DNA of 64,000 nucleotides from Octopus vulgaris. Taxonomy: Eukaryota. Positions 3,751 through 39,319 of this stretch are shown here, one piece after another. The DNA lies in NCBI GenBank assembly GCA_951406725.2, contig OX597835.1, positions 46,128,001-46,192,000 of the forward strand, read 5' to 3'. How positions within the stretch are numbered: position 1 is the first letter of the stretch; each line of letters begins with the position of its first letter. The notes beneath the pieces were generated by a model. That model saw nothing but the letters and a program-made list of their open reading frames with translations. It made no database searches and was not told where the DNA came from. Position numbers and translations under genes: made by a program.

Positions 3751-3835
<85 letters not shown>

Positions 3836-11395: not shown

Positions 11396-12234
11396 GAAAT
11401 GATGTGACGTTGTGTTGAGACCTTCATGCATTATCCAAGGACATTACTCACATAACTGTTATAAAAATACGTTTCTAGCTCAGGTTTGTCAGAAGTTTAC
11501 CTCCTATATTGCTTACGCTGGCTGTCGCCATTAAATGTTAAAATATTGTGTTTTTTTTTATTAACAGTATCTACTCACAGATCTGTCCAGTGAAGGGAAA
11601 ACATAACATAAAATATAAGAGGAAAACACATATATTATGAGAGTTTTTTTTACTTTAATATTGATTTTAGTTGTATTCTAGTGTTATTGTTTATATTTTC
11701 GCGCTGTTTTCTTTGTTCAGTTTTCTCTTTCAATTCCAATTTTGTCTTGTTTTGTTTTTAATGTACGCTAGAAATATTTATTACTTTGAAAGTGATAAAA
11801 GCTATATTATAAAATACTATATCATATGTTTTTATGTATCGATCTCTTTAAAGATAAATACAAGCCGAGATCTTTCCTGCGACCTCCTTTTTTTCGATTC
11901 TCTCATATAAGTATTACTTCAGTTGTCTTACTTCGATAACGCTTAAGTGAAAGATGTTAAGGTCGAAAGGTCTCCTGGTCTTATATCTAGTCGTAGTTTA
12001 AAAAAAAAAATAAAAACAGAGGAAATTTGAAAAATCGGCCTTCTGCCTTCTCAAAGGAGAAATAGGTGAAATAGCGTAAAATACATTTTATCACGTTACA
12101 TGACTTTTGATATAGAATGATATACGAGAGGTTTGGATGACTAACACCAGGAAATCGCATCATATGTGCAGGCATGCTTTGCGATTTCCTAACTACGTGA
12201 TCTCGTGTTCAATATTAACGCATATATATAAGAC

Positions 12235-12560
12235 GCCCCTGTCCTTGTACTATCCACCATTCATGTTTTTTATTTCTGTTTTTTATTTCTATTTTTGTTT
12301 CTTGTATTTATATTCGTGTGGCATCCTGTCTTTGTTTTGTATACATTCGTCCTCTTTCTAAGAAATCTAATGCCTATGACTTAGTTCTTGGGGCTGGCCG
12401 GTTCGGAGTAATATCGAGATTAAACAGCCGAAATTACTAAGATGATCCGGTTCCCGACTGAAGATTAGAGGCTTCGAGTGACCCGTCTGTTTTCTTGTGT
12501 CGTCTCTTTGTGTGTTTTTGCGTTCTTGTCCCACTTTGTAATTTATATTTTATATTTAAT
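12235..12560 (+). mobile_element. TA-adjacent repeat carrying the permuted hammerhead motif (diverged copy)
   Basis: Aligns with ~32455-32758; boundaries approximate. Confidence 0.65.
12392..12464 (+). ncRNA. Candidate non-circularly permuted hammerhead ribozyme with kink-turn (copy 1)
   Basis: GGCTG g CCGGTTC gGA GTAA-TA-TCGAGA ttaaa CAGCC GAAA TTAC taa GA t GATCCGG t TCCCGA CTGAAGA; predicted cleavage after 12413. Confidence 0.7.
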
Positions 12561-12566
12561 TTCTAT

Positions 12567-12638
<72 letters not shown>

Positions 12639-29595: not shown

Positions 29596-30379
29596 GTGTG
29601 ATACCGAGCTTTACCGGTGAATAAAATGCTCATTATATGATCATGTAAGAGCAAGTGGTGGTAGATTTCACAGTCTTACGGAGCCTTAACTTAATTCCTC
29701 AGGCTGGTTCTGCACAGGACACTCTGTAACACGTTCGGACCTATGAATTTTAGGTACCGTCCATCGGGTTTTCGATGAAACTACTGCGGTTTCAAGCCAT
29801 GGAATCTCACACAATATCTCTTGATTATGGATCGGTTGTGGATTGTGGATCAGCGTGTGCTTCAAAATATATTTGGCTGATTTGTCTGTTAGATCGAACA
29901 GACACGCTGTCATCGGTTTCTTTGACGTTGATTGCTTAATACAAAGAATCGCATTATGCTGTATTGCTTTTAACTTTATATCGCTAATGTTCTTTCATCA
30001 GTTTGTCTTTTAACTTAATTCTTAAATCAATACTTTGTTCAAGAGTAGAAATCAAACAAAATATTCCTAAAATAGTTGAATCTTAACGAATTTTGACTAG
30101 ACGAGATCTCGGGAAACACAAGTGACACACACACATTTGCATACAATTTCATTCAAAATATATTTGAAGAAAATAAAGTATTCTTTTTTAAAATTTTAAG
30201 ACAAAGTCGGCAATTTTGTGGAGAGGAGAAGTTGATTACATCGACTGCAGCAATTTCGGGGAGAGGGCAAGTGGATAAGATCTATTCCGGTGCTCAGCTG
30301 GCACTTACTTTGTCAATCCCGAAAGGATGGGGGGGGGGACAGACTCAACCTCACCGGAAATAGAATTCAGAACGTAAAT

Positions 30380-30748
30380 ACCTGTAACGAATACGTTAAT
30401 TCCAGAAATGTAATTATTTTCGTTATGTCCACATTCTAAGAAATACATCTTGACTGAATTTAAGAACAGGCCACCGAACACATTGCTTATATGCCCTGTG
30501 CTATTCCCTTCGTCTGCTTCCTTCGGAGCGTTCTTTGGTTTAAATGTCATCTGCTTTAAAGCAACTGTCAAGCCGTCTTGTCGTATTGAAATATGGCGCA
30601 GTAAATGTGTCGCCCACGAAATTCTGTGTAGCTGTAATTAAGTGAGACTTGTGTTTTTTTTAATTATTATAACACTTTCTGTAGTCTCTTAGCTGATCGA
30701 GTGCTATTCTAATTGTTACAGTCTCACCACATGCATGCATACATATTC

Positions 30749-30796
<48 letters not shown>

Positions 30797-30842
30797 CTAT
30801 AATGTATACATATAGATATATATATATAAACACAGATATATG

Positions 30843-30882
<40 letters not shown>

Positions 30883-31321
30883 CATAATGTATATACATAT
30901 ACAGATACATATATATACACATACATATATATCTATACATATATAAAAAGAATGCAAAAATGGGAGAAGAACGCGACAAGTGACAACAAAACATCCAGAC
31001 AGTTGAATGATTCAAAAAAGGACATGAAAAAACAAGGACGGGTCATACGAAGTTTTCTTTCGTCAGTCGAGTTCCAAATTATCTTTGCAGTTTCGGCAGG
31101 TTATACTCGAGATTGCTCCAATCTTGCCAGCCCCAAAGAAAATCTCAGCTAAGAGCCTTAGATTCCTTGGAAGAAAGCAGCGAATGTTTACCAAATCCAG
31201 GACGAAAAAAAAACACGGAGAAATGGTACATAAATACAAATATAAAGAAGAGGTGTCTTTCAACTAAGGACGAATTACATTAAGCTGGCTTTTGTGGCAG
31301 GGACATAAGAGATGACAAGCT
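30380..31321 (-). repeat. Inverted duplication of 32382-33320
   Basis: Mirror ORFs in the track; differences seen are a 3-bp indel and microsatellite-region variation. Confidence 0.95.
31060..31132 (-). ncRNA. Permuted hammerhead candidate (duplicate of copy 2)
   Basis: Exact reverse complement of 32571-32643. Confidence 0.65.
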
Positions 31322-31752
31322 ATCTTGATGGCGGTGGCCTCATGGAGCTGACCATGGCAGCGATTATTCTTATATCTATAAGAATGCCATATTAATATGG
31401 CGATAACAATTATATTCGGTCATTCAAAAATGAAAAAAAGGAATTATGCATTGTGCTGTATGCTTCTTAAAACAATGCTATTTTCAAGCTGCAACACTTC
31501 CTCTTAATACTTTTCAAAGGCAAGGCCAATCAGGAGCGAAACAACAATAATTACCCTTCCTAAAAGTTACGAAGACAAAGTTGATTTTTAAAATCATTTC
31601 TGTTATAGAGAGTGGCCCTAACCCCAACGGATAGACCTGAAATCTTGAGTAATGCGTGGAAAATCAGTTTTAAGCGCAGGACCTTATTGCTGTATCTTAT
31701 CGTATTGTATCTAGCGAGGGAACCCTATTCCGTTGAGCACTTTGTGTATATG
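31318..31752 (+). repeat. Direct duplication of 38774-39207
   Basis: 435 bp with 2 substitutions and 1 indel seen. Confidence 0.95.
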
Positions 31753-31929
31753 GGGGGGACAGATGGGGGGGGGACAGACTCAACCTCGCCGGAAATAGAA
31801 TTCAGAACGTAAATACAAAGGAAACGCCGGTTAACATTTTGGCCAGCGCTAAGGATTCTAGCAACTCGCCGCCATGTAATGCAACATGATAAAATGCCGA
31901 ATATATATGTGTGTGTATGTGTCTCTCTT

Positions 31930-32087: not shown

Positions 32088-32153
<66 letters not shown>

Positions 32154-32154
32154 C

Positions 32155-32197
<43 letters not shown>

Positions 32198-32199
<2 letters not shown>

Positions 32200-32758
32200 T
32201 GGCCTTCCCTTCATTTTCTCTCCTTTCTTCCTCTCACTTCACTCTCCCTTTTCTCTCCCTAATTCTTCTATCCCTCTGGCTCTACTTTTCTCCTCTCCTA
32301 CCACGTGACTGGTATTCTGCCATGCCTGACCTTTCTTTCTTGGTTCGACTACCATCCGTGCAACATCTATATTCCTTCCCAAGCTTGTCATCTCTTATGT
32401 CCCTGCCACAAAAGCCAGCTTAATGTAATTCGTCCTTAGTTGAAAGACACCTCTTCTTTATATTTGTATTTATGTACCATTTCTCCGTGTTTTTTTTTCG
32501 TCCTGGATTTGGTAAACATTCGCTGCTTTCTTCCAAGGAATCTAAGGCTCTTAGCTGAGATTTTCTTTGGGGCTGGCAAGATTGGAGCAATCTCGAGTAT
32601 AACCTGCCGAAACTGCAAAGATAATTTGGAACTCGACTGACGAAAGAAAACTTCGTATGACCCGTCCTTGTTTTTTCATGTCCTTTTTTGAATCATTCAA
32701 CTGTCTGGATGTTTTGTTGTCACTTGTCGCGTTCTTCTCCCATTTTTGCATTCTTTTT
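32198..32758 (+). mobile_element. ~560-bp TA-embedded element carrying the permuted hammerhead motif
   Basis: Flanked by (TA)n on both sides; pyrimidine-rich 5' part; homologous to 12235-12560. Confidence 0.65.
32571..32643 (+). ncRNA. Candidate non-circularly permuted hammerhead ribozyme with kink-turn (copy 2)
   Basis: GGCTG g CAAGATT gGA GCAA-TC-TCGAGT ataac CTGCC GAAA CTGC aaa GA t AATTTGG a ACTCGA CTGACGA; flanks TTTTCTT/AAGAAAA pair; predicted cleavage after 32592. Confidence 0.7.
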
Positions 32759-32839
32759 ATATATGTATAGATATATATGTATGTGTATATATATGTATCT
32801 GTATATGTATATACATTATGTATATATATATATATTCAT

Positions 32840-32882
32840 ATATCTGTGTTTATATATATATATCTATATGTATACATTATAG

Positions 32883-32951
<69 letters not shown>

Positions 32952-34007
32952 ATATGAATATGTATGCATGCATGTGGTGAGACTGTAACAATTAGAATAG
33001 CACTCGATCAGCTAAGAGACTACAGAAAGTGTTATAATAATTAAAAAAACACAAGTCTCACTTAATTACAGCTACACAGAATTTCGTGGGCGACACATTT
33101 ACTGCGCCATATTTCAATACAAGACGGCTTGACAGTTGCTTTAAAGCAGATGACATTTAAACCAAAGAACGCTCCGAAGGAAGCAGACGAAGGGAATAGC
33201 ACAGGGCATATAAGCAATGTGTTCGGTGGCCTGTTCTTAAATTCAGTCAAGATGTATTTCTTAGAATGTGGACATAACGAAAATAATTACATTTCTGGAA
33301 TTAACGTATTCGTTACAGGTCCTTAAATTCTTTAAGAGATACAGTTTCTCGAAAAAACTCATAGAATATCGTTTTAACACATTAATATCATAAACATTAT
33401 GAATGATTTTATTGTGTCTGGGGCATTAATTTAACACACTCGCTTGATTACCACTCATTTACTTATTTATTAAAATCTCGTTGCGACTTGCAACCTTTTC
33501 AATTGTCGTCGACTATTGAAGAGAATGATCCTCCCCAGACGCAATAAAATATGCTTCAACACACGAATTCGCATAAAGAATCTTGCAAACCAAAATACAA
33601 AAACGAAATTATTAATCATTCTAGACGAAAATTACCGAAAATGTTTCTTAGCTTGAAAGTTTTCGTTTGAGAAATACATCTTGACTGAATTTAAGAACAG
33701 TCCACCGGACACATTGCTGATATGCCCGGTGCTATTCCCTTCTTCTGCTTCCTTCGGAGCGTTCTTTGGTTTAAATGTCATCTGCTTTAAAGTAACTGTC
33801 AAGACGTCTTGTCGTATTGAAATATGGCGCAGTAAATGTTTCGCCCACGAAATTCTGGGTAGCTGTAATTAAGTGAGACTTGTGGGTTTTTTTTTTATTA
33901 TTATAACACTTTCTGTAGTCTCTTAGCTGATCGAGTGCTATTCTAATTGTTACAGCCTCACCACATGCATGCATACATGCATACATGCATACATATTCAT
34001 ATATATA

Positions 34008-34062
<55 letters not shown>

Positions 34063-34103
34063 TATATCTATCATGTATACATATACATATATATAAACAC
34101 AGA
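32840..34103. repeat. Older ~420-bp inverted repeat (32840-33261 / 33670-34103) with 408-bp spacer
   Basis: About a dozen substitutions in the ~300-bp unique part. Confidence 0.9.
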
Positions 34104-34107
34104 TATG

Positions 34108-34150
<43 letters not shown>

Positions 34151-38640: not shown

Positions 38641-38868
38641 TAATTGTTATCGCCATATTAATATGGCATTCTTATAGATATAAGAATAATCGCTGCCATG
38701 GTCAGCTCCATGAGGCCACCGCCATCAAGATAGCTGTTGATACAGATATAATGGATACAGATCGTGTATCAATAGCTATCTTGATGGCGGTGGCCTCATG
38801 GAGCTGACCATGGCAGCGATTATTCTTATATCTATAAGAATGCCATATTAATATGGCGATAACAATTA
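38641..38868. repeat. Palindrome with perfect 95-bp arms containing nested palindromes
   Basis: 38641-38735 is the reverse complement of 38774-38868; pairing continues ~11 bp into the spacer. Confidence 0.95.
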
Positions 38869-39319
38869 TATTCAGTCATTCAAAAATGAAAAAAGGAATT
38901 ATGCATTGTGCTGTATGCTTCTTAAAACAATGCTATTTTCAAGCTGCAACACTTCCTCTTAATACTTTTCAAAGGCAAGGCCAATCAGGAGCGAAACAAC
39001 AATAATTACCCTTCCTAAAAGTTACGAAGACAAAGTTGATTTTTAAAATCATTTCTGTTATAGAGAGTGGCCCTAACCCCAACGGATAGACCTGGAATCT
39101 TGAGTAATGCGTGGAAAATCAGTTTTAAGCGCAGGACCTTATTGCTGTATCTTATCGTATTGTATCTAGCGAGGGAACCCTATTCCGTTGAGCACTTTGT
39201 GTATATGTGGTTCCCCCTGTCAGTTTATATCTGGTGAAAGTTTATTATATATCAGGCAATAAAGTTACCATCCTTGTAACCATGTCTGTAGAATCATGCG
39301 TAGGATACTATATAATGCT

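Follow-up and report, generated by a model that had tools for sequence, protein, structure and literature searches.

The repeat unit and its surroundings

The window, that is, the whole stretch of 64,000 nucleotides of the Octopus vulgaris genome analysed here, contains at positions 32198..32758 what is likely a decayed, 5'-truncated copy of a non-coding repeat unit. The copy holds the 3' ~560 nucleotides of a unit of ~760-880 nucleotides and is embedded in (TA)n; about 117 nucleotides of the 5' body are missing, together with a junction tail (the start landmark of the natural full unit, L069, lies at its position 104). The features of the locus and its relatives in the window are the following.

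32092..32197, no strand: TA/TG microsatellite, 5' flank and likely target
32198..32757, plus strand: 5'-truncated unit copy of subfamily A, 76% identical to positions 221-799 of L069
32198..32302, plus strand: pyrimidine-rich unit body, 89% C/T, common to relatives
32758..32955, no strand: TA-rich microsatellite at the fixed 3' end; a TA-type run lies behind 96/99 sampled copies
30945..31321, minus strand: identical second copy of 32382-32758, within the local inverted duplication 30369-31321
12229..12584, plus strand: 5'-truncated copy belonging to subfamily B, 91% identical to the natural copy L050; it has the same ribozyme, whose core lies at 12458

A preliminary description of this DNA had recognized an element of about 560 base pairs between TA-type tracts, with a pyrimidine-rich 5' part and neither open reading frame, terminal inverted repeats nor pol III box. 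All of this holds: the tracts lie at 32092-32196 and 32758-32955, the first 105 nucleotides are 89% pyrimidine, and the longest stop-free frame has 90 amino acids, the longest one starting with ATG 66. A simple motif scan finds no pol III A or B box in this 5'-truncated copy, and the self-BLAST listing has no inverted match between the element ends: the window copy thus has neither the boxes of a tRNA-derived SINE nor the terminal repeats of a MITE. The 5' border placed at 32198, on the other hand, turns out to be a truncation, since the unit extends further. Other hammerhead-bearing TA elements, also announced for the window, were not recovered beyond the relatives of this family: Rfam gives zero matches at gathering score across the window, and a classical hammerhead descriptor gives one weak match. 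A CACGTG(A) box at ~32300-32310 is kept in all long units of subfamilies A, B, C and F, and is possibly an internal promoter element.

In the self-BLAST comparison, the segment 32382-32758 recurs at 100% over 377 nucleotides on the minus strand, at 30945-31321. This match belongs to an inverted duplication, 30369-31321 against 32382-33331, which is 96.7% identical over 959 nucleotides and perfect over the first 454. Since the duplication spans the TA tract and ~380 nucleotides of unique flank, the copy at 30945-31321 is not an independent insertion; a transposon may have induced this rearrangement, or the assembly may have folded back here. A further inverted copy of 32802-33261, 91% identical, lies at 33670-34145. 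One breakpoint of the duplication adjoins a repeat of 438 nucleotides that is present twice at 99%, at 31318-31755 and 38641-39210; at 38.6-38.9 kb it forms a perfect inverted repeat of 95 nucleotides with a short spacer in its middle. The subfamily B copy at ~12.2-12.6 kb matches the window copy at 70% over 175 nucleotides.

A large family of units that close on themselves

The genome searched comprises 2.8 Gb in 227 contigs. A DNA search with the window copy yields 4,346 first-look candidates, with at least 42 matches listed at 75-89% identity besides two self matches; the copy at 12.4 kb yields 3,862 candidates, and its relatives are 87-97% alike, subfamily B being the younger one. A tight pattern for the ribozyme described below has 3,672 exact matches in the genome, and its reversed control none. 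All three counts are lower bounds, and the 3,672 matches confirm that the copy number is high.

Individual copies have a fixed 3' end, which abuts a TA-type run in nearly all sampled cases (see the list above), and a variable 5' truncation. Unit lengths measured in tandem copies (n=6) range from 755 to 878 nucleotides. Whenever a copy reaches the start of the unit (8/8), the sequence continues, through a tail of 30-40 nucleotides, into the 3' end of a preceding copy; L200, a looser match to the start motif that has no tail, is outside these eight. The tail is found behind the last 3' end in only 4/99 copies, and inverted truncated copies adjoin 5/99. The family consists mostly of dispersed truncated copies and partial tandems, and the unit lacks a free 5' end: it closes on itself, head to tail, through the junction tail.

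Upstream of the copies, no consistent open reading frame appears in 90 loci (30 read to 1.5 kb and 60 to 4 kb, frames being judged by eye), and no copy of the unit carries, or is linked to, an open reading frame in the loci read. The genome search and extension that the preliminary description proposed gave one of its two anticipated outcomes: tandem copies were found, a linked reverse transcriptase or GIY-YIG frame was not.

Several related sequences were noted along the way. More diverged subfamilies (L385, L393, L397, L402, L390 and L411) are 66-73% identical to unit A where they align, and keep the fold. At L410:565-1500, a truncated relative immediately follows the end of another Penelope-like element, which has a C-terminal GIY-YIG fragment and CUGANGA motifs of its own; this may be a nested insertion or a chimera. 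Classical minimal hammerhead-like motifs also occur in short elements that adjoin family-A copies within shared TA tracts, at L005:1150-1450, L012:1170-1380 and L024:1160-1400 (oriented coordinates). Four sequencing runs, whose RNA type is a guess, contain contigs of the family, a result at contig level from which ends, strand and level are not readable.

A predicted hammerhead split in its catalytic strand

With blocks S, G and C named as in Eckert et al. 2023 (PMC10085705), the RNA of the unit is predicted to fold into a non-circularly permuted hammerhead of order S-G-C, whose core is split between A9 and position 10.1. In the window copy, the elements of this fold, all on the plus strand, are as follows.

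32517..32522 with 32654-32659: outer helix, 94% paired in 63 copies; one mismatch in the window copy
32527..32532 with 32644-32649: closing helix P0, directly after A9, from covariation and the MFE fold
32533..32570: hairpin between P0 and stem II, containing TTTTCTT; 89.7% paired, five pairs with two-sided change, in the MFE and centroid folds
32571..32576 with 32603-32608: stem II 5' strand, from position 10.1; 87% paired, UA to CG switch in five copies
32577..32583 with 32623-32629: 5' strand of the stem I/II interaction helix; 94% paired, two pairs switching between subfamilies
32584..32586: predicted GA strand of a kink-turn, with a 3-nt bulge and GA at 32617-32621
32587..32598: block S, with stem III 3' strand, NUH and stem I 5' strand; stem III 96% and stem I 86% paired, two-sided changes
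32603..32616: block G, with stem II 3' strand, GAAA (32609-12) and stem III 5' strand
32631..32643: shortened block C, with stem I 3' strand and the CUGACGA core; no stem II strand after A9
32644..32659: 3' strands of P0 and of the outer helix

The predicted cut falls after 32592, the NUH triplet being AUC at 32590-92. The hammerhead core letters C3-A9, G12-A14, A15.1-U16.1 and NUH are present; position 7 is free (A 26, G 26, C 2, T 1; n=55), and across families the catalytic letters are kept and H of NUH is always A, C or U. Some core letters are fixed by the search patterns; the alignment of 63 copies was chosen instead by overall similarity. On these 63 copies the model has 53 pairs, with 88.9% of cells paired and two-sided change in 22 pairs; none of 500 shuffles equals it, and controls with the pairing slid reach 26-50%. 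These covariation counts mostly reflect a few subfamily splits and not many independent events, and the shuffle control ignores relatedness. Stronger evidence is that every helix of the model is kept in two families of unrelated letters. All three stems pair in most cells (I, II and III in 86%, 87% and 96%), with two-sided changes, and additional subfamilies contribute coordinated changes of their own, a paired insertion in stem III among them.

The 5' strand of stem II sits upstream of the cut and not after A9, where helix P0 follows instead. Three pairs of P0 switch between UA and CG on both sides from one subfamily to another, the covariation score of 32526-32 with 32644-50 is 0.423 against 0.219 (0/500 shuffles as high), and RNAfold applied to the window copy picks the same partner. 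A different closing stem had been put forward earlier, between TTTTCTT (32561-67) and AAGAAAA (32644-50). Both heptamers exist, and the stem between them does not hold: it is 69.8% paired in the 63 copies against a shuffled mean of 69.6%, with 158/500 shuffles as high, and the two strands have other partners, 32644-49 pairing with 32527-32 while 32561-67 lies in the hairpin.

Between stem III and the interaction helix, which is predicted to be the non-canonical arm of a kink-turn, tandem G/A letters are found in 51-52/55 copies, and the 3-nt bulge varies; bulge and tandem G/A together correspond to the kink-turn consensus.

In the window copy itself, stems II and III, the interaction helix and the outer helix all contain mismatches, among them T-T at 32605 in stem II and C15.2-A16.2. 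Mismatches in both window copies explain why a strict pairing descriptor matched neither. When pseudoknots are ignored, the 154-nt region is no more stable than shuffles (z -0.19).

The closest published relatives are the type-SGC and type-CSG hammerheads of Eckert et al. 2023 (PMC10085705), which, in the parts of that source covered here, have the same non-circular block order, short linker between stems I and II, interaction helix and core letters. Here the linker from stem I to stem II has 4 nucleotides and the interaction helix 7 base pairs, as type-SGC order demands, whereas block C is not intact: A9 is followed by P0, and the interruption between A9 and 10.1 is closed by P0 and the hairpin, a possibility that the six-permutation scheme assumes not to exist. 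In all three families examined, any spacer in the junction of P0, hairpin and stem II is minimal or missing altogether. The split form is, in other words, the CSG/SGC ring opened at A9/10.1. A kink-turn is predicted here and is not part of type SGC or CSG as described; the host here is an animal genome, whereas the published forms come from metatranscriptomes and metagenomes, and the covered text places permuted forms in no known genome except for one weak bacterial candidate. The same text states that no known alignment has an insertion of more than 1-2 nucleotides between CUGANGA and the stems, so that the split core is without tested precedent; Perreault 2011, as far as covered, lists core insertions of 1-2 nucleotides only. 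The PK hammerhead (Zhan 2024, PMC11300833) also wraps a pseudoknotted scaffold around an intact hammerhead core, but in the sections covered its A9, G10.1-C11.1 and G12 still follow the conventional order and close off a short stem, and its strand order and extra helices differ. No description of the split-core wiring was found in the open-access literature searched.

The same wiring in unrelated sequences

The same strand order, with the same P0-hairpin-stem II junction, recurs in a Naiad-type motif of unrelated letters, with 375 genome matches against a control of 0, and in a family E, again of unrelated letters, which makes up the main part of 1,576 matches against a control of 154. Family E is an unrelated non-coding, TA-embedded repeat with the split-core fold (L324-L353, for example L332:1411-1551); its members L344/L345 are in tandem with a period of 926 nucleotides.

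Near the Naiad-type motif, L178 has a reverse transcriptase frame of 292 amino acids (RVT_1, E 2e-4, below the cut-off) that ends ~800 nucleotides before the motif, and reverse transcriptase remnants accompany the motif in L174, L185 and L413 as well. An N-terminal GIY-YIG domain is absent upstream of L178 and L161, both copies being truncated before that point; the Naiad label consequently rests on similarity, by eye, to Naiad_Ovul and Naiad_Obim. Units A and B have no blastn match to 15 loci with the Naiad motif, which cover one Naiad type: only the fold is common.

The covered parts of Craig 2021 (PMC8557442) describe Naiads as devoid of canonical hammerheads, eight of them being flagged 'HHR_half_core'. 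We parsed their published 3' ends by eye, assuming that the order of the sequence file is that of the metadata. Among the flagged ends, 6/7 parse as permuted hammerheads (Naiad-4_Dst left out), and Naiad-3_Dst has no parse in the passage covered. That of Naiad_Ovul parses as the split form and that of Naiad_Esco as a degenerate split form; the unflagged Naiad_Obim also parses in split wiring. By the same inspection, the available ends of Naiad_Omin, Adux and 1_Skow give no permuted-hammerhead parse. The nematode and spider elements Naiad_Parc, Naiad-3_Nbra, Naiad_Hpol and Naiad_Smim have 3' ends that parse by eye as intact type CSG, a type published, according to the text covered, from only two metagenomic sequences.

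These comparisons bear on a sceptical view of the locus, in which the repeat would be either a solitary terminal repeat or 3' remnant from some long autonomous element, or else a repeat at the DNA level whose hammerhead letters arose by chance. The window copy invites such a view, being short, 5'-truncated and located inside a DNA-level inverted duplication. The covariation of the fold, the recurrence of its wiring in unrelated letters and the near-zero reversed-pattern controls all speak against it, and a unit that closes on itself leaves no room for an open reading frame; this view is largely refuted, and we regard it as very improbable. The preliminary description had itself proposed a terminal repeat, or a non-autonomous derivative, of a Penelope-like element with an unusual ribozyme. 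The non-autonomous, retrozyme-like half of that proposal survives; the terminal repeat of a longer element has to be given up, since the unit is self-closing and no copy is linked to an open reading frame in the 60 loci read 4 kb upstream.

Copies that end at the predicted cut

If the ribozyme cuts, copies made from the cut RNA may be expected to end at the cut. A pattern located 3' of the ribozyme occurs at 3,803 places; the first 100 of these on contig C1 served as sample, and 99 5' ends were mapped. In the 17 nucleotides just 3' of the predicted cut, 23/83 copies end (0.28). The next 17 nucleotides, 5' of the cut, hold 3/60 ends (0.05; p 4e-4 against 23/83), and those on the 3' side 7/90 (p 6e-4), the share per window being 0.04-0.08; the best other non-overlapping window reaches 0.14. 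Leaving out L307, L258 and L288, which have internal deletions or are divergent, the counts become 22/81 against 2/59 and 7/88. The ends thus step off at the predicted cut, a pattern expected if the RNAs that were copied began there, and the accumulation is likely a cleavage footprint.

Within it, an AT-rich linker 7-12 nucleotides before G12 holds 14/23 ends, and 8/23 fall in the GC-rich 6 nucleotides beyond. Microhomology of the TA letters in the linker with TA targets could attract 5' junctions and so contribute to the accumulation. Two small samples did not reproduce the accumulation: the same comparison gives 3/23 against 2/20 (p 1.0) in a small sample of family E, and 2/17 against 0/15 (p 0.49) in a small Naiad-type sample.

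The ends could also be explained by a real fold that no longer cuts, or never did, and that serves as a structural signal bound by reverse transcriptase: the enzyme would stall in the knot, and TA microhomology would do the rest. The AT-rich linker beneath the peak suits this explanation, as do the small samples of family E and of the Naiad type, the fact that two thirds of the copies extend past the cut, and the lack of a tested precedent for a split core. It fits poorly with the conservation of the catalytic letters alongside a free position 7 and an H that is never G, and with the place where the ends drop, which is the predicted cut and not the 3' edge of the fold, where reverse transcriptase arrives first and where the hazard is 0.04-0.08. 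A fold that does not cut thus seems improbable to us, and we retain the reading in which the accumulation probably marks cleavage.

A passenger and its likely partner

The unit lacks the Naiad open reading frame, with its N-terminal GIY-YIG, CxC, DKA and C-terminal reverse transcriptase, and none is linked upstream in the loci read; within the Naiad clade it could consequently only be a non-autonomous passenger. The layout is that of the clade: partial tandem, inverted truncated copy, tail of 30-40 bp and (TA)n target are all found. We consider it fairly probable that the unit is a non-autonomous Penelope-like element of retrozyme type, carrying a self-cutting split-core hammerhead and copied into (TA)n by a Naiad-type reverse transcriptase, a partner suggested by fold and layout; its copies were likely templated by cut, circularised RNA.

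Under this model, transcripts of partial tandems would fold each ribozyme they contain: upstream sequence would supply the 5' strand of stem II, P0 and the hairpin would bridge the gap between A9 and 10.1, and the kink-turn would bring stem III onto the interaction helix. Cleavage after NUH would then release cut-to-cut monomers, part of which would be ligated into circles; RtcB is known to circularise retrozyme monomers in vitro. The Naiad endonuclease would open (TA)n with a nick, and reverse transcription would be primed at the fixed TA-rich site behind the 3' end of the unit. On a linear cut RNA, the reverse transcriptase would run out near the cut, which would account for the numerous short copies; given a ligated circle or an uncut dimer as template, it would pass the cut, the start and the tail and enter a second round, leaving partial tandems.

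In the sections covered, Craig 2021 (PMC8557442) describes cephalopod Naiads as long inactive, and subfamily B copies that are 87-97% alike count against a Naiad-type partner. The same element and ribozyme might instead be moved by a REL LINE of HERO type, or by another retrotransposon that targets TA, a solution that would accommodate both the description of cephalopod Naiads as remnants in that source and the lack of any sequence link between units A and B and the Naiad loci. The inverted, 5'-truncated 3' copies (5/99) and the junction tail are, on the contrary, described traits of Penelope-like elements, and the REL-LINE remnants near L237 and L239 are separate insertions, not continuous with the copies. 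We therefore hold a partner other than a Naiad to be unlikely, and keep the Naiad-type enzyme as the preferred one.

A search for HERO through its zf-RVT domain returned Tx1/L1-like elements and no HERO copy; one such family has open frames of 1,130-1,140 amino acids, some in head-to-tail arrays of ~5.4 kb (for example C2:73046133-73062761). The genome also harbours a young Penelope-like family (L097, L102 and others), with many copies and an intact frame of 781 amino acids that ends in GIY-YIG; in the ~1.2 kb of its 3' region, CCAAT- and CRE-like repeats are arranged in tandem and CUGANGA is absent. This family was rejected as a partner: no CUGANGA lies behind the frame in L097, L102 and L109, and 20 of its loci have no blastn match to the element.

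Discussion

Two known systems each resemble the unit in part. Naiads, as described in the covered sections of Craig 2021 (PMC8557442), also target (TA)n, are strongly truncated at the 5' end, form pLTR partial tandems with inverted truncated copies and a tail of 30-40 bp, and, to the eye, have the same ribozyme wiring in the published 3' ends of Naiad_Obim and Naiad_Ovul. They differ in having an EN-RT frame and a length of 3.4-4.4 kb, whereas the unit has ~0.8 kb, no open reading frame and no detectable sequence similarity to them. The non-LTR retrozymes of metazoans (PMC7229834; 10.64898/2026.07.22.740005) are likewise non-coding, hammerhead-bearing and arranged head to tail, and the covered text holds them to move through cut monomers and circles with the help of Penelope-like elements. 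Yet they are described there as having 170-400 nucleotides, a canonical type I hammerhead and a range from dimers to large arrays; the unit, at ~760-880 nucleotides, has a permuted split core, is mostly dispersed and truncated, and its circles are an inference. It resembles a non-LTR retrozyme in the way it works and a Naiad in the way it inserts, while departing from the former in size and hammerhead type and from the latter in having no Naiad frame.

More broadly, we lean towards the view that Naiads and their non-coding passengers use permuted hammerheads: intact type CSG in the Naiads of nematodes and spiders and, in cephalopods, the same ring opened in the catalytic strand and closed again through an added junction of helices. 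Such ribozymes would be active although outside the six-permutation scheme, with circles of ~800 nucleotides rolled by reverse transcriptase and cut footprints left by the thousands.

If this is true, it solves a puzzle stated by Craig 2021 (PMC8557442), namely how Naiads spread without a canonical hammerhead, and it gives non-circularly permuted hammerheads their first host among known genomes. It would also mean that the catalytic strand tolerates a break of the link between A9 and 10.1 when a helical junction spans the gap, which would offer a new insertion site for ribozyme engineering. Finally, given a closed unit whose copies show a step of 5' ends at the cut, a short RNA could be used to put the circle-template model of Penelope-like retrotransposition to a direct test.
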